NCBI GenBank assembly: GCA_964593375.1
Contig: CAZQIF010000003.1
Coordinates: forward strand, 11,210 to 75,209
Reading direction: 5' to 3'
From: an uncultured Candidatus Saccharibacteria bacterium
GTDB taxonomy: Bacteria; Patescibacteriota; Minisyncoccia; Phycocordibacterales; UBA918
DNA length: 64,000 nt
Notes under the pieces: model-generated
What the model saw: the letters and a program-made list of their open reading frames with translations, nothing else
Database searches by the model: none
What the model was told of the DNA's origin: nothing
Part shown: one piece after another, positions 2,190-60,121 of the stretch
Layout of the letters: each line of letters begins with the position of its first letter
How positions within the stretch are numbered: position 1 is the first letter of the stretch
Program-made: the position numbers and the translations under genes

Positions 2190-2295
2190 GTTGCTCCGGC
2201 AAAAAATGAGTAGCCGAAGCATACAACACCGCCGGCGAAGCCGGTGGTTACCAAGGCCAAAGCACCGGCCTAACCAGTTCTTCAAAACCCGATTG

Positions 2296-2340
2296 CGTGA
2301 CGGACACATAGTATATGTGTCCGTCACAAGATCTTTTTCA
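2296..2340 (+). terminator. hairpin plus T-tract (intrinsic terminator candidate)
   Basis: Perfect 14-bp inverted repeat GTGACGGACACATA/TATGTGTCCGTCAC followed by AAGATCTTTTT, 106 nt after the lipoprotein stop. Confidence 0.45.
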
Positions 2341-2403
2341 AACTTTCGATACTCTCGCGTACAGGGGTGTAGGTGTGAGTATTTAGAAGCAAGAAACATT
2401 AAT

Positions 2404-5400
2404 ATGAAAACAATTACCACAATTATAAAGACAGACGCATTCAAATATGCGATTTTTGCGTTTCTTATCGCAACGGTTGCATTCTTTGCAGTACTCCCAT
2501 TTATTTCAGATATTAATCCACACGTGAGTGGTCCTTCGCTCTCTGCGCTCCTCGTGACCGCCGATGATGGCGGTGGCGATTCAGGGTCTGGAGACTCCGG
2601 TTCAGGTGACAGCGGTACTGGCGACTCAGGTTCAGGAAGCTCAGATGGAGGCGACACCGGCTCAGGTACACCCGGCGATGGTTGCTGTGGTGACGACACC
2701 GGCTCAGGCGAAACTGGTACTGGCGACTCAGGTTCAGGCGAAACTGGAGTTGGCACACCTGGTGACGGCTGTTGTGGTGACGGTGGTAGTGATACTGGCG
2801 GGACACCAACCGATTCAGGAAATTCTGGTGGTGGTGAAGTAGCATGTTCACCCATTTGGAACGGGTGCGGTGGTTACTGGTACCAGAACAGTTGTATCTA
2901 TTCGTGTCCAACAGGGACACATGCAGAAAACGTAAGTGGCGCAAATGATGCTCAGTATTGTGGACTCTCATACAATACTTGTGAACCAAACCCAGTCGAA
3001 GTTGAACCTTCATGTTCAATTTCTGCAAACCCTAACCCCTGTACACTTGGTGCTAATTCACTTTGTGCGAGCTCAATTTCATGGTCGACGGAGAACATGA
3101 GTAACCCTGCAGTTTTCGTGCAGTCAACAGGTCAAAAGTTTGCTGCAGACGATAGTGGAAGTCAGTCGGCTCCATGGATTGATCATGCGGGCGTGACTTT
3201 TGTCGTTAAGGAACAATCTGGTTCTGCTCCAGTCATCTGTTCAGTTTCAGTCTCGGGTGTATGTGCTTCTGGAACGACATGGAATGGCAGTAATTGTGTG
3301 GCACCTACACCTACACCAACCCCAACACCGACACCAACTCCAAGCACACCAACATGTTCTCTTGCTGTGACACAGTCAACGATTACTGCAGGTCAACAGA
3401 CAACGCTTTCATGGTACACAAGTAATTTTCAATCATACAATGTACTCGAGATTGATCGTGGCATAGGTTATGTTACGCCACCACTTAATGGCTCAATGAC
3501 TATTTCGCCGAGCGTGACGACAACCTACACTGGTCATATCATAGATTTCAGTCCGACGAATGTTCGACCATGCTCAGTTACAGTGACGGTTATTCCAGTC
3601 ACTCCAAGTGCACCAACCTGTACACTCACGGCTTCTCCAACTTCAGTAAATCAAGGAAGCGCGTCAACGCTCTCATGGACAACCTCAAACGCCTCAAGTA
3701 TTTCGATTGACCAAGGCGTAGGTGCTGTTGGTGTGAGTGGCTCACAGAGCGTTTCACCAAGCGCAACAAAAACATACACCCTCACCGCAACCGGTGCTGG
3801 GGGTAGTGTGACATGTGCGAAAACGGTAACGGTTATTCCAACACCGAGTGCACCAACCTGTACGCTCACCGCGTCTCCAGCGTCAATCAATCAGGGAAGC
3901 GCGTCGACACTTTCATGGACAACCTCAAATGCGACTTCCGTTTCAATTAACCAAGGCGTAGGTGCTGTTGGTGCGAGTGGCTCAAAGAGTGTTTCTCCAT
4001 CAAACACTACGTCATACACGCTTACTGCGACCGGTGCTGGTGGTACGGTGACCTGTGAAAAGCAGGTGGTTGTAGTAGTACCAAACCCAGCTCCAACCTG
4101 TACGCTTACCGCGTCTCCAACATCAATCAATCAGGGAAGTGCTTCAACACTCAGTTGGACAACAACAAATGCATCGAGTGTGACCCTTAACGAGGGTATT
4201 GGTGCAGTGGCGACGAATGGTTCAAAGAGTGTTTCTCCAAGTGCGACAAAAACGTACACGCTTACAGCTGACGGCGCTGGTGGTACCGTTACGTGTTCAA
4301 AGACCGTGACTGTGGTAGTACCAAATCCTGCACCAACCTGTACGATTACGGTAAATCCTCAGAGTATGACACGTGGTAACTCCGCAATACTTTCATGGAG
4401 CACTACAAATGCGACCGCCGTTGTCATCGACAACAATATCGGCACCGTTTCCCTGAGTGGTACACATACGGTTTCACCAACGGTGACTACTGAATATAAA
4501 CTATCTGCAGTCGGCGCTGGTGGTAGTGTACTCTGCAAAACAACACTTGCGGTGAATGAACCGCCAGTTGCGCCAACGTGTGCGCTTAATGCAAACAAGA
4601 CTGCAATTACCGCTGGTGAAAGTGTTACACTCACCTGGAGTTCAACAAATGCGAACCAAAGTACACTTCAAGGCGTAAATGTCGCGCTCTCAGGAAGTGG
4701 CGTGTACACCCCTGAAACGACAACGACATACACCTATGTGGTAACCGGAGCTGGTGGTTCACAAACCTGCACGAAGACCATTACGGTTACTCCGTATGTT
4801 CCTGTCTCACCAGTATGTTCACTTACGGTAAGTCCAAACAAAATTACAAAGGGAAGTATGGCGACACTCAACTGGACAGTTGGAAATGCGAGTGTGATAT
4901 CAATTGATCAAAACATCGGCACTGTTTCTGCGGTTGATTCTCGTTTAGTGAACCCAATACAAAACACAACCTACACTCTCACGGCTCGCGGTGAAGCAAA
5001 TCAGACCGTGACTTGTGTTGCTTCACTCGTTGTTGAGGAACCGCATGTTGACGATCCGGTGAAGTGCGATGCATTCAGCGCTTCGCCAAGTACGCTTACT
5101 GCTGCTGGCACCACGACACTCACTTGGAATACTTCAAATGCAACGAATGTTTCAATTAACAACGGTGTTGGTACCGTGTCTGAAGATGGCGGAAAAAGTG
5201 TCTTTGTGGAAGCAAATACAACCTACACCCTCACCGCAACCGATGGTGACAAAACAGTAACCTGTCAGACGCAAGTGAACATTGTACCTCCTACGGTGAT
5301 TGTTCCTAAGTGTGACGCGTTCTCGGTCAGTCCATCATCTCTCAATAAGGGTGAAACAGCGACACTTACATGGGCCACCACAAATGCTTCATCAGTTTCG

Positions 5401-6435
5401 ATCAACAATGGTGTTGGTACTGTTGCAGTCGATGGCAATTCATCAGTTACGGTAAATTCTGATACGACCTATACACTCACCGCAACAAATGGAAGTGCAT
5501 CTGATAGTTGCCAAGCGACAGTCACTATTAAATCAAGCGGTGGAGGAGGCGGAGGTGGGTCAAGTTCACCACGCTGTACGCTCACCGCGTCTGATAAGAA
5601 GATTTCGGCAGGTGAACAAGTTACCCTCACGTGGAAGAATACTCGAACAAACGATATCCTGCTCAAGGATAATCGTGGCAACGTGCTCGCTGATTCAAAG
5701 AAGGACAGCAAGATTGATGAAGATGCAGATTCAATCAAGGTAAAGCCAACCAAATCAACGTCATATACGCTTACCGTTATTAAGGGAAGCAAGAAGCGTG
5801 ACTGTACTGTTGATATCAATGTGTCGAATGTGACCGTTTCAAGCAATCGTCCACTCGTTGCGGGTATCTCACTTTCACAGGTTCCGTACACTGGATTTGA
5901 CGCTGGTCCATTCCTTACGACAGTCTTCTATTCACTCATTGTACTTTGGGGACTTGGTATCGCATACGTGCTCGTGCTGAGGGGAAACAAGAATACTCTT
6001 TCTTTGAGTACTCTTACGCCTATTCGGTCAATACCTATGATTAAGGAAGAAGCTCCTGTCCACCGCATTCCGACAATGCTTGTTGCACCAACCGTGACAA
6101 CAGCACCACAAACTTGGAAAGCGGTTAATCCGGTTATTGGGTACGAGTCGCTCTACGCGACTGCACCCGCTTCGGTAATTGAAGAAGAAGTTACTGAGGA
6201 AGCAACCGTTGAACCGCAGGTAGAAGACACCACCGCACTTCTTGAAGGACATGCACATGACGCACATGTGCTCATGTCGAGCGATGCGCTCCGTTTCATT
6301 GCGGGGCAGTCAGCGCTTGTCGAGGAACAGCTTGCAATTCTTGATAAGGTTATTGGTCTTGCAAAGGCGCAGTATCCTTCAGAGAACGGATGGGTCATCG
6401 TCAATAAAGAAAAAACCCTTTCTCTACTCAAATAA
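2404..6435 (+). CDS. giant surface protein with a Gly/Ser/Asp-rich linker, a Cys-rich module, about ten tandem Ig-like repeats, and a C-terminal TM segment followed by an approximately 150-aa tail
   Basis: Start taken at MKTITT (2404) because the 2191 to 2403 extension is Arg-rich junk containing the upstream terminator hairpin. Repeat unit is approximately PTCTLTASPTSxNQGSASTLSWTTSNASS...TYTLTATGAGG.VTC. Hydrophobic segment TTVFYSLIVLWGLGIAYVLVL is preceded by VPYTG. Confidence 0.7.
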   Translation: MKTITTIIKTDAFKYAIFAFLIATVAFFAVLPFISDINPHVSGPSLSALLVTADDGGGDSGSGDSGSGDSGTGDSGSGSSDGGDTGSGTPGDGCCGDDTGSGETGTGDSGSGETGVGTPGDGCCGDGGSDTGGTPTDSGNSGGGEVACSPIWNGCGGYWYQNSCIYSCPTGTHAENVSGANDAQYCGLSYNTCEPNPVEVEPSCSISANPNPCTLGANSLCASSISWSTENMSNPAVFVQSTGQKFAADDSGSQSAPWIDHAGVTFVVKEQSGSAPVICSVSVSGVCASGTTWNGSNCVAPTPTPTPTPTPTPSTPTCSLAVTQSTITAGQQTTLSWYTSNFQSYNVLEIDRGIGYVTPPLNGSMTISPSVTTTYTGHIIDFSPTNVRPCSVTVTVIPVTPSAPTCTLTASPTSVNQGSASTLSWTTSNASSISIDQGVGAVGVSGSQSVSPSATKTYTLTATGAGGSVTCAKTVTVIPTPSAPTCTLTASPASINQGSASTLSWTTSNATSVSINQGVGAVGASGSKSVSPSNTTSYTLTATGAGGTVTCEKQVVVVVPNPAPTCTLTASPTSINQGSASTLSWTTTNASSVTLNEGIGAVATNGSKSVSPSATKTYTLTADGAGGTVTCSKTVTVVVPNPAPTCTITVNPQSMTRGNSAILSWSTTNATAVVIDNNIGTVSLSGTHTVSPTVTTEYKLSAVGAGGSVLCKTTLAVNEPPVAPTCALNANKTAITAGESVTLTWSSTNANQSTLQGVNVALSGSGVYTPETTTTYTYVVTGAGGSQTCTKTITVTPYVPVSPVCSLTVSPNKITKGSMATLNWTVGNASVISIDQNIGTVSAVDSRLVNPIQNTTYTLTARGEANQTVTCVASLVVEEPHVDDPVKCDAFSASPSTLTAAGTTTLTWNTSNATNVSINNGVGTVSEDGGKSVFVEANTTYTLTATDGDKTVTCQTQVNIVPPTVIVPKCDAFSVSPSSLNKGETATLTWATTNASSVSINNGVGTVAVDGNSSVTVNSDTTYTLTATNGSASDSCQATVTIKSSGGGGGGGSSSPRCTLTASDKKISAGEQVTLTWKNTRTNDILLKDNRGNVLADSKKDSKIDEDADSIKVKPTKSTSYTLTVIKGSKKRDCTVDINVSNVTVSSNRPLVAGISLSQVPYTGFDAGPFLTTVFYSLIVLWGLGIAYVLVLRGNKNTLSLSTLTPIRSIPMIKEEAPVHRIPTMLVAPTVTTAPQTWKAVNPVIGYESLYATAPASVIEEEVTEEATVEPQVEDTTALLEGHAHDAHVLMSSDALRFIAGQSALVEEQLAILDKVIGLAKAQYPSENGWVIVNKEKTLSLLK
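3346..5830 (+). repeat. about ten tandem copies of a roughly 240-bp (80-codon) coding repeat
   Basis: Units 3604 to 3843 and 3844 to 4083 are roughly 85 percent identical at the nucleotide level. The antisense 79-aa ORFs at 3651 to 3890 and 3891 to 4130 are shadows of the repeat. Confidence 0.8.
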
Positions 6436-8295: not shown

Positions 8296-8531
8296 ATGAG
8301 TTTTTATTAAGTATTCTTATAAACTAAAAAACGTCCGAGTAAAAATACGATAATTCGCATTTTTACTCGGACGATCTTTTGACCGCGGTTCCACCGAGCT
8401 TCTGAGGCCGTAAGCCCCAGCACTTTAGGTATCAAATTAGGCACATTAGTGCGTCGCATAGGACTGGTAGTTGGTAGCCACCACAATCTCTGATGTAGCT
8501 GTTATCGTATCGTGTTACTAGGTATTGTCAA
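8296..8531 (-). promoter_or_regulatory. candidate T-box riboswitch leader of thrS (Stem I with AGAGA and ACC codons, T-box sequence, terminator hairpin plus U-tract)
   Basis: On the minus strand: GCUCGGUGGAACCGCGG (T-box-like, UGGA bulge), then hairpin GTCCGAGTAAAAAT...ATTTTTACTCGGAC and GTTTTTT ending 25 nt before the thrS ATG. Upstream, CAUCAGAGAUUG and GGCUACCAACUACCAG. Possible TTGACA -35 at 8531 to 8526. Confidence 0.5.
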
Positions 8532-8602
8532 CAAGTTTGAAGGTGGTACACGAAATTGGAGAAGAGTCGAACTCCAGGTTCTCTAAGTGAGCATACAGCT
8601 AT

Positions 8603-8630
8603 TGACATAATTGCACTATGTTGCTATAAT
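8603..8630 (+). promoter_or_regulatory. consensus sigma70 promoter (TTGACA, 16 nt, TATAAT)
   Basis: Perfect -35 and -10 hexamers; divergent from the thrS leader; drives the small ORF at 8730. Confidence 0.5.
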
Positions 8631-8729
8631 CCTATGCAGTTACAGAGCTCGAAGTACGGGGCATGAAGTGGAGTAAGGTCCTGGCAAGACCTATGATTTC
8701 AAATCACCCTTTTTGAGGAAAATATAAAC

Positions 8730-9029
8730 GTGGAAAAAGTCATTTGCTGGCTTGGTGATAACGAGGTCGCCACGGGTTGCGGAGATACCAAAAAGGCCGC
8801 TCTCGAGGACGCGGTCGGCTGGTGGATCAAGGACAAGTTAACCGAGACGTACAGTCTTTCGTTGGCCGACGTAGACCCTCTTTGCGAGAAAATTCTCGCG
8901 GCAATCGCGGACTCGAAATTCGTGGATGAGGGGGGATATGCCACTTTCGAGCCTGGCGTTCATTACGATCTTTGCTGCGAGATCTACGACGTTGCCGAAA
9001 AGCTCGGCATCAAGAACTTCGGCAAGTAA
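8730..9029 (+). CDS. small hypothetical protein (99 aa, GTG start, 5 Cys)
   Basis: GAGGA Shine-Dalgarno 8 nt before GTG; consensus promoter upstream and a strong terminator downstream; no recognisable domain. Confidence 0.5.
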   Translation: MEKVICWLGDNEVATGCGDTKKAALEDAVGWWIKDKLTETYSLSLADVDPLCEKILAAIADSKFVDEGGYATFEPGVHYDLCCEIYDVAEKLGIKNFGK

Positions 9030-9052
9030 TCCTGTCCTCGTCTCCTGAAATA

Positions 9053-9108
9053 ACCCGCCGTAGTGCAGAGTCGCCCTTTGGGACACTCTCACTACGGCGG
9101 TTTCTGTT
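9053..9108 (+). terminator. intrinsic terminator
   Basis: CCCGCCGTAGTG ... CACTACGGCGG stem followed by TTTCTGTTTG. Confidence 0.55.
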
Positions 9109-9225
9109 TGTTATGAGAGTGCATGAGGGGGGTTAAAACTCCATATCAGCACATCCTTCCGTCCTGAATTTGCACGCTAACTGCACAAGGTGGAAAGGGG
9201 GTCATATGCTAAACTATAAATCACC

Positions 9226-10197
9226 ATGGCCAAGAAAATGAAAGAAAAACAACTCGTTATCTACCAGACAAAGTCGGGTGCTCTTGAGTTGCGTGGTGAT
9301 GTCGAGAAAGAGACTCTGTGGGCAACGCAGACACAGATTGCAGAGGTGTTTCAGTCAGAACGCTCAGTTATTACAAAACATATAAGAAACATTCTAAAGG
9401 ACGGAGAACTTGAGGAAAATTCAGTATGTGCAAATTTTGCACATACTGCCGAGGATGGAAAAGTATACCAAGTAAGGTTCTATAATTTGGATGTAATTCT
9501 TGCGGTTGGTTATAGAACAAATTCAAAAAAAGCTGTTGAATTTCGCCAGTGGGCAACGAAGACACTCCGCGAACACATCACCAAAGGTTATACCATCAAC
9601 CGCAAGCGCATTGCTCAAAATTATGATGCACTCATGAAGGATGTTGAGGGTATACAAAATCTTTTACCTGAACACGTTACACTCGACCCTAAAATAGTCC
9701 TTGAACTCATCAAGGAGTTTGCTTCGACATGGGTGTCGCTCGATGCATACGATAAAGAGTCTCTGGAACTCAAAGGAATTACCAAAAAGCGAGTAACACT
9801 CGTGAGTGCTGATCTTCATACTGCGATTATGGATCTTAAGAAAGAGCTCATGCGAAAGGGCGAGGCAACTGATATGTTTGCGTCCGAGCGTAAGGCAGGG
9901 AACATTGAAGGAATTGTTGGTAACGTGATGCAGTCATTTGGCGGAAAGCCCATGTACGCAACTGTCGAAGAAAAAGCGGCACATCTTCTCTATTTCATGG
10001 TTAAAAATCACCCATTCACTGACGGCAATAAACGTTCAGGTGCTTTTGCGTTTGTGTGGTTCCTCAGAAAAGCCGGCGTGAAGGGAAGTAGAAATATTAA
10101 TCCCGTAGCGCTTACGGCACTCACCCTTCTTATTGCTGAAAGTGACGCACAGAAAAAAGATCAAATGGTTGCACTCATCACGCACATGTTGCGGTAG
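9226..10197 (+). CDS. RhuM-family N-terminal domain fused to a Doc/Fic-family domain
   Basis: N-terminus resembles RhuM (VILAVGYRTNSKKAVEFRQWATKTLREHITKGY). C-terminal HPFTDGNKRSG matches the Doc-type HxFx(D/N)(A/G)NKR Fic motif. Confidence 0.75.
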   Translation: MAKKMKEKQLVIYQTKSGALELRGDVEKETLWATQTQIAEVFQSERSVITKHIRNILKDGELEENSVCANFAHTAEDGKVYQVRFYNLDVILAVGYRTNSKKAVEFRQWATKTLREHITKGYTINRKRIAQNYDALMKDVEGIQNLLPEHVTLDPKIVLELIKEFASTWVSLDAYDKESLELKGITKKRVTLVSADLHTAIMDLKKELMRKGEATDMFASERKAGNIEGIVGNVMQSFGGKPMYATVEEKAAHLLYFMVKNHPFTDGNKRSGAFAFVWFLRKAGVKGSRNINPVALTALTLLIAESDAQKKDQMVALITHMLR

Positions 10198-10216
10198 TTT
10201 TTCGTGGCCTGTTGGA

Positions 10217-13200
10217 TTATTCAGGAGATTTTTCTTCTGTACCACCAAGCGCTTTTACCTTCTCAAGCGCAATTGTTGGCTCTTCATTTCTGATTGAGAG
10301 GCGGCCTTTCACGGCGACGCAGGTGCCGGGGATGAGGAGATTTTGGTGCGCGCGATACGTTTCAGGGAATGCGACGAGTTCAACGGTGTCGGTATAGTCA
10401 CCGAGCTGAACGAAGGCCATTTTCTCTCCCTTTTTTGTGAGTAGCTCACGTACGGTTTCAATCATACCAGCGGTCACAACCGGAATGCCGTTTCGGCTGT
10501 CTCGTTTGATGCTTGTAATCGTTGAGCGTTTTGCAAGTTCTTCTGCATACTCATCGAGCGGGTGTCCGGAAACATATACGCCAAGAAGTTCTTTTTCCCA
10601 CGTGAGTTTTTCGATTTTGGTGGCCAGAGGAGCTTCGGCGAGAGTCACTTCGTGGAATGCGACATCGGGAACAAGTCCAAAGAGTGAGTCTTGAGAGGAT
10701 TCTTTGCTTGATGCGTGTTCTTTGTGGTACGCGAGGAGGACGTCAATATTTGCGAGCATTCTTCCACGATCTTCAAATCGGTCGAAGGCCCCCGACATGA
10801 TGAGTGCCTCGAGTGACTTTTTATTTAAATTTCTATTTGTGATTCTCTTGAGGAAATCTGAGAGCGATGCAAATGGTCCGTTAGTCTTACGCTCTTCGAT
10901 TATGGCTTCGGAAATGCCTTCGCCAAAATTCTTGATTGTGGTCAGCCCAAACCTGATTTTCGCGGGCACGTCGTGCCCCAGGGTACTCTCTCTGCCTTCG
11001 GCATTCACCTTGTCGTGCGCCGGAACAACTGAGAAGGGCCCGAAGCTCTCATTTATGTCAGGTGGTAACACCTCAATCTGCATGTGCTCACACTCGTGAA
11101 TAATTTCCGAAATTTTTTCGGTGTCGCCGGCGTCTGCGGTGAGTACTGCAGACATATACTCGACCGGATAGTTCGCCTTCATGTATGCGGTCTGGTATGC
11201 GACGCGACCATAGCTCGCGGCGTGTGCCTTGTTGAATCCGTAGGCGGCAAATGGCTCGATGAGTTTCCAAAGTTTTTCAGCAAGCATGGGGGAGAGCTTT
11301 CCAAATTCAGTAAAGCCCCTCAGAAGCTTTTCTTTTTCTGCTTCCATAACCGCGGGAATTTTCTTTCCCATTGCTTTGCGGAGCATGTCGGCTTCGAGCC
11401 ATGAGTAGCCCGCGAGCTCGCGCGCAATCATCATGACGTCATCTTGGTATGTGATGACACCATAGGAACGCTCGAGTACTTTTTCAAGGCGTGGATCAAG
11501 ATACGCAATGAGTTTCGCATTGTGTTTGCGTTCAATGTACTGTGGAATCGATTCCATTGGCCCCGGGCGATAGAGGGCCACCATCGCGTTGATGTCGTGA
11601 ATCGAAGTCGGGCGTAGTTGCTTGAGAAATGCGGTCATACCGGAACCGTTCAATTGGAAGAGACCCATGGTTTCGCCGCGTGCGAGCATCTCAAAAGTTT
11701 TTTTATCGTCGAGTGGAATATTTTCAATATCGATTTCAACTTTGTGAATGACACGCACGCGGCGCACTGCCTCTGCAAGAATAGAGAGGTTTTTAATACC
11801 GAGAAAATCGAACTTGAGAAGCCCCACACCGTCTTCACCAACGGAGTGCATTTCATACTGCGTGATGAGTTTGCCGGTTTTCGGGTCGGGCTGGAGTGGT
11901 ACAAACTCCGTGAGTGGTCGCGGTGCAATCACGACACCCGCTGCGTGCACACCCACATGGCGCACACGTCCTTCAATTTGTTTCGCGAGGTCAATGACCT
12001 GCTTGGTGTCAGGATCTTTTTTGTAGAGGTCCATGAGGTCGGGTTCAATATCCATCGCATGCGTGATGGTCATTGGAAATCCTTGGCTTCCCATCGGAAT
12101 GAGTTTTGCAATGCGGTCGCCGGTTGAATATGGATGACCGAGGGCGCGCGCGACGTCACGTACCGCAGCGCGCGCCATCATGGTTCCAAAGGTACCTATT
12201 TGTGCAACATGGTCTTGGCCATATTTCGCGCGCGCATAGTCGATGATTTCGTCACGGCGGTTGTCGGCATAGTCCATGTCGATATCGGGAGCGGATGGTC
12301 GTTCAGGATTAAGAAAACGTTCGAAGGGAAGTTTGTACTCGAGTGGATTTACATTGGTAATACCGAGCACGTAGGTTGTGAGTGAACCCGCGACCGAACC
12401 TCGAATGGTGGTGAGAATTTTTCGTTCGCGTGCTTCACGAATGAGGTCACCCACGACGAGAAAGTATTTTGCATAACCCTTCATCTTGATGACTGAAAGT
12501 TCGTAGTCGAGGCGCTCTTTCACAATAGGGTCTTCGAGCGTGAGACCGCGCCACGCCACACCCTCATACGCAGTATGGTGGAGTTCATCATCAGGTTCAC
12601 GCTTGCTCTCAATTTTGTAGTCGGGGAAATACCAGTTTTTTCCGGGTGACATCGTGACGGTGCATGCTTCGGCAATTCTGACCGTATTTGCGAGAGCCTC
12701 GGGGGTATCTTTAAAAAGTTCTTTGGCAGTTTCCTGTGAAATAAAAGAAAAGTTTGGGGCAAGTTCACCACTATCATCAGTGGTGTCGAGAATACCACCG
12801 TGCTGAATTTTGAGCATTGCTTCACGCGCGAGGTGGTCGGTTTTATTTAGGTAGTAGACATCATGCGCCGCAACAAGTGGTGTTCCTGAACGTTTTCCGA
12901 GCGCAATAATTTTTTCTTGGAGTGCCTCATGTTCCTGAATTTCTGGATGATGGGTGACCTCGAGGTAACAGTGTTCACCAAAAACGCTCTTGTACCAGTC
13001 GAGACTTGCTCCAGCTTTTTCCGCATCTCCGTCTTTGAGTGCAAGCACTGGTTCACCACTAAATGAAGGGATGATGCAGACGAGATTTTTTCCAAATTCT
13101 GCGAGGAGATCATGGTCGATGCGTGGTCGGTAATAGAATCCATTCACGTATGATTCGGTCACCATCTTGATGAGGTTCACGTACCCATCATTATTTTGTG

Positions 13201-13524: not shown

Positions 13525-14157
13525 GTGAAAAAGAAAATTGACCGAAAAATTACTCATGTCATAGGAATAGATGAGGCAGGCCGAGGCCCATTAGCTGGTC
13601 CTGTTGCGGTCGGTGTCGCCATCGTGCCGGTCGATTTTGACTTTGAACGTATTCCTGGTGTTGGGGATTCGAAGAAGGTATCGGCGAAAAATCGCGAAGC
13701 GATTTTTCGCCGTGCCAAACTCCTCAAAAAACAAGGTGTTTTAGACTACGCAGTTGCACTTATTTCGGCAAAAATAATCGATAATATTGGCATTTCAAAA
13801 GCGGTACAGAAGGGAATTGAGACATGTCTCAGTTCCCTTCGACCAAATCCAAAATTGGTTGAAGTGAAGCTCGATGGACTCCTCAAAGCACCCACTGAAT
13901 TTACGGAGCAAGAGACCATCATTAAAGGTGACGCAAAAGAAAAGGTTATCGGTCTTGCCTCAATTCTGGCGAAAGTGACTCGAGACGCTCACATGTGCAA
14001 AATGGCAGAAAAGTACCCAACATATGCATTTGAGGTCCATAAAGGCTACGGAACAGCCCTCCATAGGGCTAAAATACGCCAAAATGGGCCCTCTAAGGCC
14101 CATCGCAGGTCTTTTGTGAGGAAAGTACTCAAAGGCACAAAGTACGAGGAAAAATAG
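13525..14157 (+). CDS. rnhB: ribonuclease HII
   Basis: GIDEAGRGPLAGPV active-site motif; GTG start; only 14 bp from the divergent dnaE start. Confidence 0.85.
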   Translation: MKKKIDRKITHVIGIDEAGRGPLAGPVAVGVAIVPVDFDFERIPGVGDSKKVSAKNREAIFRRAKLLKKQGVLDYAVALISAKIIDNIGISKAVQKGIETCLSSLRPNPKLVEVKLDGLLKAPTEFTEQETIIKGDAKEKVIGLASILAKVTRDAHMCKMAEKYPTYAFEVHKGYGTALHRAKIRQNGPSKAHRRSFVRKVLKGTKYEEK

Positions 14158-36577: not shown

Positions 36578-36613
36578 CAAAAATCCCTGAACGTCTGTTC
36601 AGGGATTTTTGTT
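36578..36613 (+). terminator. intrinsic terminator
   Basis: AAAAATCCCTGAA cgtctg TTCAGGGATTTTTGTT; the same stem recurs at 39078 to 39113. Confidence 0.55.
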
Positions 36614-36673
36614 AAACAGCCCACTTACAAATTGATTCTATCTTGGCACGACGCTTTGCGTTGGGGTTTTCGC

Positions 36674-36717
36674 GTATATCACAGCTTTGTTGTCGAACGA
36701 CAACAAAGCTGTGATAT
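36674..36717. promoter_or_regulatory. perfect 21-bp-arm palindrome (operator or hairpin candidate)
   Basis: TATATCACAGCTTTGTTGTCG aa CGACAACAAAGCTGTGATATA, 20 nt upstream of the regulator start. Confidence 0.5.
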
Positions 36718-36736
36718 ATTTAAAGTACACTTCTGT

Positions 36737-37324
36737 ATGAGTAATTTTTCTTCTAAAAAATTCAATCATATCGATTTACTCCGCAAACAATCGCGTTCAT
36801 ATCGAGTACTGCAGGAGATTTCAGCAGGCGATATGTTTGTTGGATTTCTTCTTTCTGCTCGGAGTACCAAACTTATGTACCAAGTTGCGCGACGACGCGC
36901 TCAAGAGCGATATCAAAACAAGAAAACAATTTTGGAGCTTAAGGCATCGGGATATGTGACCGAAAGGGAGGTCTCGGGTCAACCATCATTTTTCATTACC
37001 AAAGCGGGAAAACAGGCTTTGCGGGAAGTGTATCGAAAAGCGCATGCTCAGCACACAAAACCGGCCTCATGGGATGGTTTATGGCGAGTGGTTTCGTATG
37101 ATTTCCCTGAAGGTGAAAGGAGTGTTCGTAACTCTCTGCGGTATGTGCTTGAAAAAGCTCAGTTTTTGCAAATTCAAAAAAGCGTTTGGCTTTCGCCGTT
37201 TGACTCACAAGAACTTGAAAAGGTAATTGCGAGTCATACAGTGGCCAAAAATCATGTTGTCGTAATGGTTGTTCGCTCTATTTCTGAAGAAGAACGATAC
37301 AAGAAGCATTTTCGACTCAAGTAA
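36737..37324 (+). CDS. PaaX-like transcriptional regulator (start uncertain; the ORF is open back to 36632)
   Basis: C-terminal WDGLWRVVSYDFPEGERSVRNSLRYVLEKAQFLQIQKSVWLSP resembles the PaaX C-terminal WDGxW region. Low confidence because the call is by recollection only. Confidence 0.45.
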   Translation: MSNFSSKKFNHIDLLRKQSRSYRVLQEISAGDMFVGFLLSARSTKLMYQVARRRAQERYQNKKTILELKASGYVTEREVSGQPSFFITKAGKQALREVYRKAHAQHTKPASWDGLWRVVSYDFPEGERSVRNSLRYVLEKAQFLQIQKSVWLSPFDSQELEKVIASHTVAKNHVVVMVVRSISEEERYKKHFRLK

Positions 37325-37338
37325 TACCATCCACAACG

Positions 37339-37380
37339 GTATCACGCCTTTGTTGTCGTTCGACAACAAAGGCGTGATAC
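37339..37380. promoter_or_regulatory. second perfect palindrome, near-identical to 36674 to 36717
   Basis: GTATCACGCCTTTGTTGTCG tt CGACAACAAAGGCGTGATAC; differs from the first at two positions, mirrored in both arms. Confidence 0.5.
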
Positions 37381-39077: not shown

Positions 39078-39113
39078 CAAAAAATCCCTGAATGGATATT
39101 CAGGGATTTTTTG
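39078..39113 (-). terminator. bidirectional-type terminator after the antiporter gene
   Basis: AAAAAATCCCTGAA tggata TTCAGGGATTTTTT. Confidence 0.5.
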
Positions 39114-41852: not shown

Positions 41853-44843
41853 ATGCAAAACTCACTCTTTGATGAGGCATATAAACGGCTTAATCCAGCC
41901 CAAAAAGAGGCTGTAGACACCATAGAAGGGCCAGTAATGGTCATAGCGGGGCCGGGGACAGGGAAGACGCAGATTCTCACCCTCCGCATTGCAAACATAC
42001 TCCTTAAGACGGATACACGCCCTGAGAATATTTTGGCGCTCACCTTCACCGAATCAGGCGCTCGCGCGATGCGCGAGCGCCTGGCATCCTACATTGGTGC
42101 GCCTGCATACCGTGTTCCGATATACACATTCCATGAATTTGCCGGAATCCTCATTCGTACCTACCCCGAAGCCTATGAGCGAGCGGTGGGCGGAAAGCCG
42201 ATTACTGACCTTGAGAAAATCACGCTCATTGAGTCGCTCCTTGCATCGCCTGATGTTAAGCAACTTCGCCCCCACGGAAATCACGAATTTTATGTAAAGC
42301 CAATCATGAGCGCACTCTCGCTCATGAAGCGTGAGTACATTACGCCTGACCGTTTAGCGGAAATTATTGTCGAGCAAGAAGCAGTACTTAACGAGACACC
42401 AAAGATTCATGAAAAAGGTGTACATAAAGGAAAGGTCCGTAGCGAGTACATCGACCGTGAAAAGCATCTACTCAAAAATCGTGAACTACTTTTTATCTAT
42501 CGTGCGTATGAGTCAGCGCTTCAAGGAGAAGGGCAATACGATTTTGAGGACATGATTTTTGAGACGGTGAAAGCGATGGAGGGAAGTGAGGACATGCTAC
42601 GTTCACTCCAAGAAACGTACCAGTACATTTTGGCCGATGAACACCAAGACGTGAACGGAAGTCAAAACCGCATTCTCGAACTCCTCGCGTCATTCCATGA
42701 GAACCCCAATATGTTTGTCGTAGGGGACGAAAAACAAGCAATCTATCGATTTCAGGGAGCCTCACTCGAAAACTTTTTATACTTTGAAGAAAAATTCCCG
42801 AACACCAAAACAATTGCACTCACCGCTAATTATCGTTCCGCACAGAATATTCTCGACCTTTCACATGAGCTTATTGTCGTCGATGCAGGTTCTGCTTCAG
42901 AACTTCGTGTTCCGCTTACCGCAATAAAGAAAGAGACAGGAGTCATCGAACGACGCGCGTTTAGTCATGAAGCAGTTGAACATGAGTATGTGATTAGTGC
43001 AGTAGAAAAGCTCATTGCGGATAGTACGCCACTCGAGGAAATTGCGATTATACTGCGAACAAACCGTGAGGTTGAAGAGTTTGCAACACTTCTTAGAAAG
43101 CGCGGTATTTCGGCGGAGGCTTCGGCTGATGGTGATATTCTCTATCATCCGATTACCACTTCAGTGCGTGAACTCATTGATGCAGTTATTCATCCAGAAG
43201 ACGAGCGAGCGCTCGCGGGAGTACTCATGAGTGGGTATAGTGGCATCGCGGTTCAGGATATTGTGCGCATCATGCGTGCGCGCACATACAGTCGACCACT
43301 CACTGCAATTGTTGCTGATACCGAAGGAATGCAGGAACTTGGTGTGACCGACGCTCCACGTGTGAGTCATCTTGTGGAGGTTCTAATGGAAGCACGTAAG
43401 CGTATGTCGCTTGAGGCACCACATCGCGTGCTTGAGTATATGCTCCGAGAAACAGGGCTTCTTGACCATGCAATTGCCTATGACCCGTACGATGGCGGGC
43501 GCGTGATTCGTCGACTCTACGATGAAGTTGAAGAAATGGTTCGCCACGAAGAAGTACAAACGCTCGCGGATATTGGTATGATGTTTAAGCTCCGCATTCT
43601 CCACGGATTGCCACTTAACGCACCGTACATTCGTGCCAATCGCCATGCGGTGCAGGTCATGACAGCACATAAAGCAAAAGGACTCGAGTTTCTCCATGTA
43701 TTTATTCCACACCTCACTGATTCACGGTGGGGCGGAAAAACACGCACTGAATATTTCCGTATCCCGATTACGCACCATAAGGGCGCTGAGGAGCATGACC
43801 AAAATGATGATGAGCGAAAGCTTCTCTATGTTGCACAGACGCGCGCAAAAATCGGTCTCTATATGAGTTCGAGTGAAACGAGCGCTGAGGGTCGCACGCT
43901 TCTTCCGACGCGACTTCTTGAAGATGTTGGTGCATCGACCATCGGTGAAGTTGATGTCTCACCACTTGAAAGTGCCTTTAATCCAACTGACTCTGTGGTG
44001 CACAAAGACACGCGCATGCCGATTGATGCAACGCTCCTTAAAACCGTACTTCACGAGCGTGGGCTTTCTGCAACGGCACTCAATAACTATTTGCGTGACC
44101 CGTGGAATTATTTCTTTCGCAACGTACTGCATATTCCCGAAGTACAGGAGGAGAGCGCACAGTTTGGTACTGCCCTCCATGATACGCTCCGTGCAGTGAT
44201 GCACTACAGACGTGAACATGGTGAACTTCCGAACACTACAACACTCAAGACTTTTCTTGAGCGAGAACTTAAAAAGCTTCCGATTACCCACACCGAGTAT
44301 GTGCGACACCATGAGCGTGGACTGGTTGCCCTTACGACGTACCTCGGGTATGTAGAAAACGCACTTCCTCACGAAACGAAAGAAGAATATGGTATCGAAT
44401 CAGTGCTCCAAACGGGTGATACAGAAATTCCTGAAGTGCGTCTTACGGGAAAACTCGACCGTCTCGATTTTGATACCGCAGGGCGCATAGTGCGCGTTGT
44501 AGACTACAAATCAGGGAAACCTAAGACACGTGGATACATCGAGGGAACGACAAAAGATTCAACCGGTGACTACAAGCGCCAACTCACATTTTATGCATTT
44601 ATGCTCTCACTCCAGAGTGATGAGCGACTTGTGTGTCGTGATGGCCTCCTCTCATTTGTTGAAGCGGATGAAAAGGGAAAGATTCACGAAGAAGCTTTTA
44701 CCATAACGGATGAGGAAATTGAAACACTTAAAGCGGAAGTTATTCGAATCGCCCTAGAAATCGGAAAAGGCGCGTTTTTAGACGCGCCTTGTGATCCTCT
44801 CATGTGTACCTATTGTGATTTGGTAGCACGGCTTCGAAAATAA
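41853..44843 (+). CDS. UvrD/PcrA-family helicase fused to a C-terminal RecB-like PD-(D/E)xK nuclease with a Cys cluster
   Basis: Walker A AGPGTGKT and DEHQD; C-terminal VRVVDYKSGK, QLTFYAFML and CDPLMCTYCDL. Confidence 0.8.
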   Translation: MQNSLFDEAYKRLNPAQKEAVDTIEGPVMVIAGPGTGKTQILTLRIANILLKTDTRPENILALTFTESGARAMRERLASYIGAPAYRVPIYTFHEFAGILIRTYPEAYERAVGGKPITDLEKITLIESLLASPDVKQLRPHGNHEFYVKPIMSALSLMKREYITPDRLAEIIVEQEAVLNETPKIHEKGVHKGKVRSEYIDREKHLLKNRELLFIYRAYESALQGEGQYDFEDMIFETVKAMEGSEDMLRSLQETYQYILADEHQDVNGSQNRILELLASFHENPNMFVVGDEKQAIYRFQGASLENFLYFEEKFPNTKTIALTANYRSAQNILDLSHELIVVDAGSASELRVPLTAIKKETGVIERRAFSHEAVEHEYVISAVEKLIADSTPLEEIAIILRTNREVEEFATLLRKRGISAEASADGDILYHPITTSVRELIDAVIHPEDERALAGVLMSGYSGIAVQDIVRIMRARTYSRPLTAIVADTEGMQELGVTDAPRVSHLVEVLMEARKRMSLEAPHRVLEYMLRETGLLDHAIAYDPYDGGRVIRRLYDEVEEMVRHEEVQTLADIGMMFKLRILHGLPLNAPYIRANRHAVQVMTAHKAKGLEFLHVFIPHLTDSRWGGKTRTEYFRIPITHHKGAEEHDQNDDERKLLYVAQTRAKIGLYMSSSETSAEGRTLLPTRLLEDVGASTIGEVDVSPLESAFNPTDSVVHKDTRMPIDATLLKTVLHERGLSATALNNYLRDPWNYFFRNVLHIPEVQEESAQFGTALHDTLRAVMHYRREHGELPNTTTLKTFLERELKKLPITHTEYVRHHERGLVALTTYLGYVENALPHETKEEYGIESVLQTGDTEIPEVRLTGKLDRLDFDTAGRIVRVVDYKSGKPKTRGYIEGTTKDSTGDYKRQLTFYAFMLSLQSDERLVCRDGLLSFVEADEKGKIHEEAFTITDEEIETLKAEVIRIALEIGKGAFLDAPCDPLMCTYCDLVARLRK

Positions 44844-50124: not shown

Positions 50125-50904
50125 TTAGTCGCCTGTGCGAGTGAGACGTGTGTAGCGCCGTATACCGAATTGGTCCATTCTGGTTTCTGTAGCAAAGCCG
50201 TTTTGGGCACCGAGCTTGGCTATTGCTTCTGATTGTTCTGGTTCGTGCTCGATATAGAGGACACTATGCGCACACATATGTAGGTGTGCGTGTTCAATAA
50301 TATTTAAAATGAGCTCGAGACCGTCTTTTCCACCATAGAGCGCAAGGTGTGGCTCGTGAGTATGGACACTTTGCTCGGTGCGATTTAATACTGGGTCGAT
50401 ATAGGGTGGATTCGACAGGATGTAATCGTAGGTACCGGTGATAGTTTCAAAGAGGTTGCCACCATATATATGCATGCGTGACGTATCGATACTGTTTTCA
50501 CGAACGTTTTTTTCGATGAGTGGATGCAGGCGCGCGTCGATTTCTCCGAAATCAACGCGCGCGTTAGGAATCGCGGTAAGTACGGCAATACCAATGCATC
50601 CTGAGCCCGCACAGAGGTCGAGCACCCTCAGGTCTCTTTTTTCACGTGCCTGCATTTCGGCGATTACTTTCTCCACCCAGTATTCAGTCTCGACTCGTGG
50701 TATGAGGGGTCGAACACCAGTTTCGTCTTCAGTGGGAGCGAGAAAAATTTTTGTGTCGAGGAAAGGAATGTGACCAATGACATAGGCGAGCGGTTCACCG
50801 TTCTTTAAACGAACGCAGTCGGCGAAAAAACCTTCGGTTTTTTCGCCGTTATATTTTTCCTTGAGTAGCCAAGATTCATCTTGTGTCATAGGTATAGCGT
50901 ACAA
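50125..50904 (-). CDS. prmC: release-factor glutamine N5-methyltransferase (HemK/PrmC family)
   Basis: NPPY motif (ILSNPPYID); SAM-binding LDLCAGSGCIG. Confidence 0.8.
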   Translation of the reverse strand: MYAIPMTQDESWLLKEKYNGEKTEGFFADCVRLKNGEPLAYVIGHIPFLDTKIFLAPTEDETGVRPLIPRVETEYWVEKVIAEMQAREKRDLRVLDLCAGSGCIGIAVLTAIPNARVDFGEIDARLHPLIEKNVRENSIDTSRMHIYGGNLFETITGTYDYILSNPPYIDPVLNRTEQSVHTHEPHLALYGGKDGLELILNIIEHAHLHMCAHSVLYIEHEPEQSEAIAKLGAQNGFATETRMDQFGIRRYTRLTRTGD

Positions 50905-53790: not shown

Positions 53791-53823
53791 CAAAAATTCC
53801 CGCCAGCAGGCGGGAATTTTTGT
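53791..53823. terminator. bidirectional terminator between the aldolase gene and rpmG
   Basis: AAAAATTCCCGCC agca GGCGGGAATTTTTG. Confidence 0.5.
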
Positions 53824-59258: not shown

Positions 59259-59300
59259 AATTTATATTATGATGTCCACGTGGACATCATAATATAAATT
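59259..59300. other. perfect 42-bp palindrome with a CACGTG core
   Basis: AATTTATATTATGATGTCCAC|GTGGACATCATAATATAAATT, 9 nt downstream of the truB stop. Confidence 0.5.
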
Positions 59301-59308
59301 AAAATCTC

Positions 59309-60121
59309 TCAGAATCTCCGGAGCCAAAAACCAAAATGCTTTCCGAGAGGAAAGTACTTGCCGATTGTGGTGCGGTGAATTGAGTATGCAAGGCCACACG
59401 TGCCAAATTTTTTCCCAATAACTTCTGCGAGCGAGCGCATGTAGGTCCCAGATGAAGCGACACAGGTAATGTTCGCTATGTAATATGCGGTGTTGTTGTC
59501 GGGTGATCTTTCCAAATCATTCCAACATTTTCGTACCTCAGTTCGGCGGAAATCTCGTCCGAGTACCTTTCGTTCATCGGTTACTGTAGGAATTGTTTCT
59601 ATTTTTTCGAGTACATTTTTGCAAAGCTCACTACGTGTAATCGTTCGAAGACTATTAAGCACAATTTTGTAAATACGTGATTCTTTCACTGGGATTTCGA
59701 TTTCATCAAGCCTCTTTTCAAGTGTCCACATGTGGAGTGGTTTCCCCCCTACGGTTTTTGCAGAGAAGTGTGGATAGGGAAGGGTAATATTTCCAATAAA
59801 CCTCAGAAGCACATCCTGAACTTGTTCCTCGTCAATCGCTTTGGTGTCACAGGTCTCTATAATACCAAGCACATCACCGGTATCAGAGTGTACTCCGAAG
59901 AGGACTTCAAATATGTACTCTTTATCGAGCGAATGGTATTTTTCTTGCCGTTTACATTCGTCGCCCACAAGAATAAGGAGTTTTCCTGAAGCCATTGGGT
60001 CGAGCCTTCCTGCATATGCAAGTGGAATACTTGAATTCAGTTTATGAAGCTCACGCAAACGGAGCGTCGCCTGAAGCGGAGTTTCACCAACTTTTTTTTC
60101 TATGGTGAAATATTTTCGCAC
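59309..60121 (-). CDS. truB: tRNA pseudouridine55 synthase
   Basis: GRLDPMASGKLLILVGDECK (TruB motif II with catalytic Asp). Confidence 0.85.
   Translation of the reverse strand: MRKYFTIEKKVGETPLQATLRLRELHKLNSSIPLAYAGRLDPMASGKLLILVGDECKRQEKYHSLDKEYIFEVLFGVHSDTGDVLGIIETCDTKAIDEEQVQDVLLRFIGNITLPYPHFSAKTVGGKPLHMWTLEKRLDEIEIPVKESRIYKIVLNSLRTITRSELCKNVLEKIETIPTVTDERKVLGRDFRRTEVRKCWNDLERSPDNNTAYYIANITCVASSGTYMRSLAEVIGKKFGTCGLAYSIHRTTIGKYFPLGKHFGFWLRRF

Follow-up and report, generated by a model that had tools for sequence, protein, structure and literature searches.

A solitary RhuM/Fic/DOC gene in a 1.7-kb insert of a Patescibacteria genome and its family-wide intragenic hairpin, a candidate cis-acting control element

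Fic proteins of the Doc type and proteins with a RhuM domain have been described in several settings. In the Phd-Doc system of phage P1 (PDB 3K33 and 3DD7), the toxin Doc, of ~126 amino acids (aa), is co-transcribed with the upstream antitoxin Phd. The RhuM-only PDC-S05 protects E. coli B from T4, T5, and T7, reducing the plating of T7 and T5 by ~1000-fold (PMC12881386). RhuM and Fic domains are combined in BifA of Streptococcus equi subsp. zooepidemicus. This protein, described as a secreted virulence factor that acts on host moesin, depends on its Fic histidine for activity and promotes the phosphorylation of a threonine in its target (PMC6529018). PDC-S23, like PDC-S05 a single-gene phage-defence candidate of the PADLOC collection, received no mention in the literature that we searched. 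Here we report the computational analysis of a PDC-S23 gene, hereafter RhuM-Doc, in a 64-kb window of bacterial DNA (64,000 nucleotides of contig CAZQIF010000003.1, to which all positions refer unless another record is named). The gene lies between dnaE and thrS, downstream of a small orphan open reading frame (ORF), and an earlier reading of the letters alone (below, the sequence-only reading) had proposed that the two genes form a toxin-antitoxin (TA) or abortive-infection-like module. We consider it probable that the locus is instead a ~1.7-kb insert with two unrelated genes and that one of them encodes a solitary RhuM/Fic/DOC protein; our leading guess is that a family-wide hairpin within its reading frame acts as a control element in cis.

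The RhuM/Fic/DOC family protein of 323 aa (9226-10197, + strand) has an N-terminal RhuM domain (~residues 1-135; 9226-9630, + strand; Pfam RhuM with weak Bro-N and Rha matches) and a C-terminal Doc-type Fic domain (~residues 201-323; 9826-10197, + strand; Pfam Fic, TIGR01550, and a PHROG Doc-like toxin). Virulence_RhuM (PF13310) matches at E = 3.6e-22, with 79.3 bits vs. a cut-off of 33.7, and Fic/DOC at E = 6.7e-12; TIGR01550 scores 33.5, under its cut-off of 38.65. The PADLOC model PDC-S23 (PDLC04965) covers residues 5-322 of 323 at E = 1e-111, models of PDC-S05 match the N-terminus (residues 5-132, up to 5-206, with E down to 9e-61), and relatives carry the NCBI name 'virulence protein RhuM/Fic/DOC family protein'. 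The profiles thus confirm the RhuM N-terminus and the Doc motif HPFTDGNKR (residues 262-270; 10009-10035, + strand) that had been read from the translation, and the catalytic motif is retained in the family, with HPFxDGNKR kept in 77 of 78 homologues. The inhibitory motif (S/T)xxxE(G/N) has no match in the RhuM-Doc protein, nor in 55 of the 78 homologues, nor, as already noted from the letters alone, in the product of the small ORF. By these matches we take the gene to be an ordinary member of the catalogued PDC-S23 family, with nothing to set the window protein apart.

The AlphaFold 2 (AF2) model of RhuM-Doc has a mean predicted local distance difference test score (pLDDT) of 63 and a predicted template modelling score of 0.42, with residues 30-100 at a pLDDT of ~80. 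These residues are predicted to form a helix-helix-beta-hairpin-helix unit of winged-helix-like shape, the predicted recognition helix spanning residues 46-58 with H52 and N55 invariant. In Foldseek, the predicted C-terminal domain superposes on P1 Doc (3K33/3DD7) with a probability of 1.00 and a template modelling score of 0.67 over ~136 columns, and the family profile also finds Doc chains in the PDB.

Inside the RhuM domain, codons S66-A75 contain a perfect palindrome of 13+13 nucleotides (nt), CAGTATGTGCAAA-T-TTTGCACATACTG (9422-9448), which encodes the first strand of the predicted beta-hairpin and constitutes a family-wide covarying hairpin. Palindromes of 78 homologues were located on a protein-guided codon alignment. 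They occur at the same codon place with differing stem sequences, as in the stretches encoding SVVAKNATTA (5' arm CAGTTGTTGCA, 3' arm TGCAACAACTG), ATIRKFRIV (5' arm AACTATCCGGAA, 3' arm TTCCGGATAGTT), STCKESLQV (5' arm AACTTGTAAGGA, 3' arm TCCTTACAAGTT), and SNVQKMHIA (5' arm GCAATGTGCA, 3' arm TGCACATTGC). The longest perfect inverted repeat of the whole ~970-nt gene is centred at residue 70 in 71 of the 78 homologues, and its arms reach at least 10 bp in 60 of those 71, while permutations of synonymous codons mostly give 5-8 bp. When the stems are aligned by their centres, Watson-Crick pairs make up 90-100% at each of positions 3-12, and every one of these positions has 2-4 pair types, among 21 distinct stems; at stem position 7, for instance, the pairs are TA (36), GC (34), and AT (6). 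In a second, independent alignment made with MAFFT, 13 sequences with a palindrome centre offset by one base are misplaced, and double-sided changes are still seen at 12 of 12 pairs. The covariation score of 0.593 was reached in 0 of 500 shuffles, which gave 0.213, and sliding the partner lowered it to 0.095 or less.

The hairpin is the only place in the gene where synonymous-site constraint peaks; there, Ala69 is GCA in 40 of 40 cases and Lys70 is AAA in 53 of 53, Ala codons elsewhere in the gene being used almost evenly. Folding energies of the stems as single-stranded DNA range from -8.5 to -14.8 kcal/mol (z -4.4 to -7.9). We found no other conserved pair of complementary segments in the RhuM-Doc gene, and a long-range stem of 9499-9518 with 9587-9606 was set aside as window-specific and not conserved. 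A search of the hairpin at 9422-9448 against Rfam returned nothing at E <= 10. The alignments show a 10-13 bp stem at codons 66-75 that is conserved in structure rather than in sequence throughout the RhuM family.

The palindrome is present in both RhuM-only and RhuM-Doc genes. We examined 16 plasmid RhuM genes from Bacteroidota, Gamma- and Alphaproteobacteria, Actinomycetota, Campylobacterota, and Bacillota, and 12 of them have arms of at least 8 bp at the homologous codon, which usually form the longest inverted repeat of the DNA retrieved; Pseudonocardia has, for example, AACTATTGACT-CGC-AGTCAATAGTT and Aliarcobacter GTGGTTGTTCGG-AATTA-CCGAACAACCAC. Three RhuM-like genes on viral contigs also carry it. 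The literature searched held no paper linking RhuM with a palindrome, hairpin, or inverted repeat, much subscription literature lying outside that search. Separately, coding regions of the window hold other perfect palindromes with 13-14-bp arms, at 13682-13712 (in rnhB), 42055-42083, and 50820-50848; that of rnhB is not kept as a palindrome in two relatives, L081 and L084.

Pairing extends to all ten stem positions, whereas a palindrome bound by a protein would be expected to drift wherever contacts are lacking; a folded hairpin or cruciform is thus the better fit. As the stems vary while the predicted recognition helix stays constant, sequence-specific self-recognition by this helix is unlikely; structure-specific binding may occur. 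Mismatches of the G:T (G:U) type occur in only 2 of 22, so that, in these small numbers, there is no sign of the G:U tolerance expected of a purely RNA stem. The hairpin looks terminator-like on the minus strand, and an antisense-RNA terminator was rejected as a general explanation, as synonymous sites at the promoter-like sequence 9647-9620 of the minus strand vary freely and the T-tract is missing in GC-rich hosts. A search for extra copies of the stem nearby that might serve as operators gave only chance-level 10-mers with one mismatch. Our leading guess is that the hairpin is a cis-acting element that limits or times the expression of a partner-less toxin; alternatives are a supercoiling-sensitive cruciform and a hotspot of recombination or gene conversion that diversifies the encoded beta-strand. 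A bolder proposal, which we rate as rather unlikely, is that the hairpin is the missing 'antitoxin' of solitary RhuM-Fic/Doc genes, namely a cis structure in their own reading frame that would provide silencing until infection or stress. Such an element would either hold the gene silent or keep the protein in check. It might take the form of a hairpin in the mRNA or of a cruciform in the DNA that is sensed through the N-terminal domain or through supercoiling, and the amino-acid sequence of the stretch would follow the needs of the stem. If true, this would be a new mode of control for a partner-less toxin, and one found across bacterial phyla.

The pairing of the two genes was assessed by a scan of species representatives (one genome per species), which gave 465 RhuM-Doc relatives; the best 80 of these, 63-80% identical and nearly all from Patescibacteria, are the loci that were examined. 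The small ORF was absent from 80 of 80 loci at both the protein and DNA levels, and from the three nearest homologue loci as well (83 loci in all). At the loci of the closest homologues (86% and 79% identical), the DNA similarity to the window stops at the RhuM-Doc stop codon, and none was detected upstream. Among 69 upstream neighbours of homologues there is no common family, the top Pfam matches being MarR (4 of 69) and type I restriction R subunits (3 of 69), and neither Phd/YefM, AbrB, nor any other conserved antitoxin was found. In the window, the small ORF and RhuM-Doc are separated by a 196-nt gap with a hairpin terminator, each gene having promoter-like signals of its own. The two-gene module proposed by the sequence-only reading is not upheld, because the small ORF is not conserved beside RhuM-Doc homologues: the co-occurrence that it had suggested checking is 0 of 83, no homologue of the small ORF was found, and the terminator and gap stand between the genes. 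We regard the two genes as unrelated, separately transcribed passengers of one insert, and the small ORF as a lineage-specific orphan that is no conserved partner of RhuM-Doc.

The context of RhuM-Doc differs in every genome and lies amid housekeeping genes in several; neither thrS nor dnaE was found near it at the homologue loci of other genomes. The gene is solitary and common in Patescibacteria, without a recurrent neighbour, its products being 63-86% identical across many classes of this group, and the protein collection holds >8000 relatives. At the locus of the closest homologue (L086, 86% identical), RhuM-Doc is inserted between the gene for an ABC-transporter ATPase and its MacB-type permease gene, and a different Cys-rich orphan ORF of 131 aa (3474-3869 of that record, - strand), with no similarity to the small ORF of the window, lies beside it. 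On plasmids of other phyla, RhuM genes are often part of type I restriction-modification operons. Those of several plasmids of Proteobacteria and Campylobacterota (L093, L098, L099, L102, L103, and L105) are embedded in such operons, their starts falling no more than a few bases from where a type I hsdM, hsdS, or DNA methyltransferase gene ends. On a Legionella pneumophila plasmid (L106; NZ_CP016869, 60650-65444), genes for a tyrosine recombinase, a Tn3-family transposase, and RhuM/Fic/DOC are contiguous and co-directional, as if RhuM/Fic/DOC were cargo of a transposon at that site. A GTTCGAC motif upstream of some homologues was dropped, being common to only 3 loci.

Relatives of the threonyl-tRNA synthetase (ThrRS) place the organism among the Patescibacteria (candidate phyla radiation, CPR), close to Kaiserbacteria. 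The flanking genes thrS and dnaE, named in the sequence-only reading, were verified by translation, and its view of the module as an inserted accessory cassette proved correct, as the adjacency of genes in relatives, the homology breakpoints, a relic of dnaE, and inverted repeats at the boundaries all attest. In three relatives (L081, L083, and L084; ThrRS 85%, 80%, and 79% identical), dnaE is directly followed by thrS on the same strand, with a gap of 245-400 nt that is the T-box leader of thrS. In the window, an insert of ~1.7 kb (8542-10246) comes between the end of dnaE and this leader, and its two genes are both encoded on the other strand from dnaE and thrS; the insert is missing in the three relatives, and homology with them ends at ~8535 on one side and ~10262 on the other. 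The boundaries carry a 9-bp inverted repeat, GGTGGTACA on the left (8542-8550, + strand) pairing with TGTACCACC on the right (10238-10246, + strand), each present in a single copy in the window; the chance of a match of at least 9 bp in the boundary windows is ~0.03.

From the right repeat to 10217, the insert provides dnaE with its new last 10 codons and stop (GGTEEKSPE*). The original 3' end of dnaE, recognized by comparison with the relatives (GTTGACAATACCTAG, encoding VDNT*; 8521-8535, - strand), is still in the window at 8535-8521 but severed from the gene, and it overlaps the -35 box of thrS. In the relatives, dnaE ends in ...VDNT* or VDNA* on the same TTGACA box, i.e., the thrS -35 box lies inside the last dnaE codons. 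Outside the module, the context consists of the thrS T-box leader (8364-8540, - strand; Rfam E = 4.9e-7, full-length, below the gathering score), the leader promoter TTGACA-16-TACGAT (8531-8504, - strand), and a 19-bp terminator (8373-8332, - strand). The promoter, T-box sequence, and terminator are all kept in the three relatives, where the -35 box overlaps the dnaE stop. With respect to the hallmarks of a Tn3-family transposon, namely tnpA, a res site, and terminal inverted repeats of 38 bp around the cargo, the insert has the 9-bp inverted repeats only, no long terminal repeats, and one weak TnpA-like segment in the small ORF. A tRNA T-arm-like sequence, GGAGTTCGACTCTTC, occurs at 8557-8574 (- strand), just within the left end of the insert; the idea of a tRNA fragment at this place was dropped, ARAGORN finding no tRNA in the window.

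The small ORF (8730-9029, + strand) has a GTG start and encodes an acidic protein of 99 aa with 5 Cys, no Arg, and a pI of 4.4. It is preceded by a sigma-70-type promoter, TTGACA-17-TATAAT with a TG extended -10 (8602-8630, + strand), and by the Shine-Dalgarno sequence GAGGA 10 nt before the GTG (8715-8719, + strand), and it is followed by an intrinsic-terminator-like hairpin with a T-rich tail (9052-9112, + strand; arms 9052-9065 and 9090-9103, an inner stem, then TTTCTGTTTGTT). The ORF, its Shine-Dalgarno sequence, and a strong terminator are thus as the sequence-only reading had them, as are the perfect boxes of its textbook promoter, for which the spacer is corrected from 16 to 17 and the start from 8603 to 8602. 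This promoter is the sole perfect match to its pattern in the window, and 0 of 100 shuffles give one. The ORF would be strongly expressed, as had been claimed, to judge by these consensus signals. Its leader of ~93 nt is no more structured than shuffles (z -0.56), and the fold of the small transcript has a modest z-score of -2.4.

Both this leader with its Shine-Dalgarno sequence and the G+C content at third codon positions (GC3) of the small ORF are atypical for the genome. Among the 35 window genes of at least 200 aa, only 2 have a Shine-Dalgarno-like sequence, and in most window genes the start codon follows a -10 (TATAAT-like) box at a distance of 5-9 nt; this leaderless-type layout suggests that the mRNAs of this organism are mostly leaderless. 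RhuM-Doc has the same layout, with the -10-like box TATAAA 5 nt before its ATG (9215-9220, + strand), and a -10-like box lies 0-17 nt before the start codon in about 40 of 78 homologues; its promoter and codon usage are host-like. GC3 is 0.68 in the small ORF, vs. 0.42 in RhuM-Doc and 0.45 in host genes (p = 1e-5). At the first and second codon positions (GC1/GC2), the small ORF has 0.566/0.374 vs. 0.577/0.393 in host genes, an agreement found in this frame only. Its codon score ranks 4th of 93 small ORFs, yet falls at the 10th percentile of real-gene segments, and its antisense frame scores nearly equal. The AF2 single-sequence model, with a pLDDT of 51, is unreliable and was not taken to a fold search. 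Translation of the small ORF is uncertain. The ORF also contains one copy of a 17-nt direct repeat, GTGGATGAGGGGGGATA (8922-8938), the other, GTGCATGAGGGGGGTTA, lying past the terminator (9119-9135; 15 of 17 identical).

We found no true homologue of the small ORF among ~15 billion proteins, nor in metagenome, viral, phage, or plasmid DNA. A word-indexed search of 5.8 billion protein clusters gave only the self-match, and an exhaustive phmmer search of 1.84 billion representatives gave the self-match and four spurious proteins of 400-1895 aa; the latter are tandem-repeat proteins in which 3-7 weak repeated stretches are summed, and they were rejected as artefacts because their E-values come from this summing. 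Searches with tblastn and blastn detected nothing at the 80 RhuM-Doc loci, the three nearest loci, phages, or metagenome and viral contigs, and nothing significant in plasmid records beyond a twilight TnpA match. That the protein has no recognisable domain, as the sequence-only reading had stated, holds for Pfam, NCBIfam, and PADLOC, with no PDB sequence match even at E = 10; the same sources contain no match to a known antitoxin or DNA-binding family (Phd/YefM, AbrB, ribbon-helix-helix, helix-turn-helix, or YhfG). A likeness of its N-terminus to HicB or to a double-stranded RNA-binding domain was considered and rejected, Pfam giving only dsrm at E = 0.069 on a 42-aa fragment and the PDB nothing, and the PHROG match 'late transcriptional activator' (E = 0.039) is not significant. 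Rfam returned nothing at gathering score in the window and nothing at E <= 10 on the + strand of 8541-9260; given these negatives and the leader z of -0.56, the small transcript was rejected as a known RNA or structured leader. An in-frame alignment pairs residues 8-78 of the small protein with residues 621-689 of enterobacterial Tn3-family TnpA (36 bits, 35-41% identity, pairwise E = 1e-7, beating 1000 shuffles), at a database-level E of only 0.04-0.4. The Pfam Tn3 transposase profile has no match to the small ORF, the divergent Tn3-family TnpA of Legionella does not match in that region, and no further TnpA fragments were found near it. The TnpA likeness is probably due to chance, a transposon relic being conceivable.

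In the scenario that we propose, the horizontally acquired insert (8542-10246) would have integrated within the final codons of dnaE, a short way upstream of the T-box leader of thrS, and RhuM-Doc would be expressed from its own -10 box at the start codon. The Doc-type Fic domain may act as a kinase that shuts down translation, as P1 Doc does via phosphorylation of EF-Tu, and the N-terminal RhuM domain, winged-helix-like in the model, may serve as sensor or regulator in the same polypeptide; with such a built-in regulator no separate protein antitoxin would be needed. Several points weigh against this scenario. Because the AF2 model is mediocre, regulation between the domains is pure conjecture. 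The toxicity, kinase activity, target, and anti-phage activity of the protein and of PDC-S23 are putative, by analogy with relatives, and the target may differ from EF-Tu, as that of BifA is host moesin (PMC6529018). An identity of 63-86% seems high for a defence gene, the boundary repeat has a p of only ~0.03, and RNA and DNA action of the hairpin are indistinguishable, with no enrichment of G:U (2 of 22). Finally, the orphan ORF may yet have a lineage-specific antitoxin role, lying upstream in the same insert and on the same strand.

That last role is the core of the proposal of a type II TA or abortive-infection module, in which the toxin RhuM-Doc would have the small Cys-containing protein as its non-canonical antitoxin or immunity partner. 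Besides its position, the small size and acidity of the protein (pI 4.4) resemble those of many antitoxins, and Doc toxins usually have an upstream partner (PMC2701414), but the ORF stands beside 0 of 83 homologues and has no homologue of its own, is cut off by a terminator and the 196-nt gap with a promoter for each gene, differs from RhuM-Doc in codon composition, and lacks a DNA-binding or antitoxin domain, and hundreds of RhuM-Doc genes do without a recurrent neighbour, so we hold this pairing to be very unlikely. Whether the small 'gene' is a functional protein gene at all may be asked as well. A non-coding transcript, or a decayed relic of the delivery vehicle such as a Tn3-family transposase fragment, would agree with its orphan status, its codon score at the 10th percentile with a nearly equal antisense frame, a leader and Shine-Dalgarno sequence atypical of a genome mostly without them, the AF2 pLDDT of 51, the weak in-frame TnpA similarity (36 bits, 0 equal among 1000 shuffles), and the Legionella plasmid in which Tn3-family tnpA lies immediately upstream of the RhuM/Fic/DOC gene. 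We nevertheless find it doubtful, as GC1/GC2 match host genes in this frame only and the promoter, Shine-Dalgarno sequence, start, and terminator are all intact; on the side of the relic, the database E for TnpA is 0.04-0.4, with no Pfam Tn3 match, no match of the Legionella TnpA in the region, and no nearby fragments, and on the side of the transcript, there is no Rfam family and the fold z of -2.4 is modest.

A third explanation concerns RhuM-Doc itself, which in Patescibacteria might have been domesticated for a host function, as a regulatory kinase or DNA-binding protein, and not be a defence or addiction toxin. It would account for the high conservation (63-86% identity across many classes), the number of relatives (465 in the species representatives, >8000 in the protein collection), the host-like codon usage and leaderless promoter, and the housekeeping surroundings in several genomes. 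The absence of the gene at this locus in the three closest relatives and its varying context in every genome are, however, the pattern of a mobile accessory gene; relatives reside in type I restriction-modification operons, on plasmids, and in a Tn3-family transposon, and PADLOC lists these proteins as candidate families, of which the RhuM-only member PDC-S05 is validated. We therefore judge domestication to be improbable and retain a mobile, solitary RhuM/Fic/DOC gene with a hairpin in its frame as the probable reading.

These results remove a false lead on TA pairing and argue for treating RhuM/Fic/DOC proteins as single-gene systems. RhuM-family genes are widespread, in type I restriction-modification operons, plasmids, transposons, and hundreds of Patescibacteria, and one member blocks phages. 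The conserved intragenic hairpin is the part of the locus that deserves follow-up. A stem kept by compensatory changes across phyla, while ten codons are rewritten, points to a strong function at the nucleic-acid level and is a clear example from nature of DNA or RNA structure dictating the sequence of part of a protein; it would also offer a concrete handle on how a toxin without an antitoxin stays harmless and gets triggered.

Other elements were observed elsewhere in the window. An ORF at 36632-37324 is bracketed by a pair of perfect palindromes that closely resemble each other and have arms of 20-21 bp (TATATCACAGCTTTGTTGTCG... and GTATCACGCCTTTGTTGTCG...; 36675-36718 and 37339-37380), and a 42-bp perfect palindrome without a loop (AATTTATATTATGATGTCCAC joined to GTGGACATCATAATATAAATT; 59259-59300) lies just upstream of the gene at 59309-60121. 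About ten intergenic hairpins stand between an A-tract and a T-tract (CAAAAATCCC...GGGATTTTTG), e.g., at 36578-36611, 39078-39113, and 53791-53822, and look like bidirectional intrinsic terminators. The 1414-aa product of the gene at 2191-6435, probably a surface protein, contains many tandem immunoglobulin-like repeats of ~90 aa, is rich in Gly, Ser, and Asp in its N-terminal region, and has a membrane anchor at the C-terminus. In relatives, the same position next to thrS is occupied by large genes.

Among the described systems, the window protein is closest to PDC-S23, with which it shares a full-length hidden Markov model match, the two-domain architecture, and the organization as a single gene without a fixed partner. 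With Phd-Doc of phage P1 it shares the Doc-type Fic fold and the motif HxFxDGNKR, the difference being that a RhuM N-terminal region of 200 aa precedes its Doc domain in one fused chain. With PDC-S05 it has the N-terminal RhuM domain in common, and the intragenic palindrome also occurs in RhuM-only genes, whereas the C-terminal half of PDC-S05 differs and has no recognisable match to the Doc motif. BifA, likened to it by domain order and description, has the same order of domains, and Patescibacteria lack such a host-cell context. As to the hairpin, two other kinds of element offer a comparison: the attC sites of integrons are hairpins conserved in structure and variable in sequence, and Rickettsia palindromic elements are palindromes inserted in frame. 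The RhuM hairpin resembles the former in that its stem is kept by pairing and not by sequence, and the latter in that the palindrome is translated within a protein. It lies at no cassette boundary, is no dispersed repeat, and has no associated recombinase; unlike both, it is a single 10-13 bp element at one codon position of one domain family.

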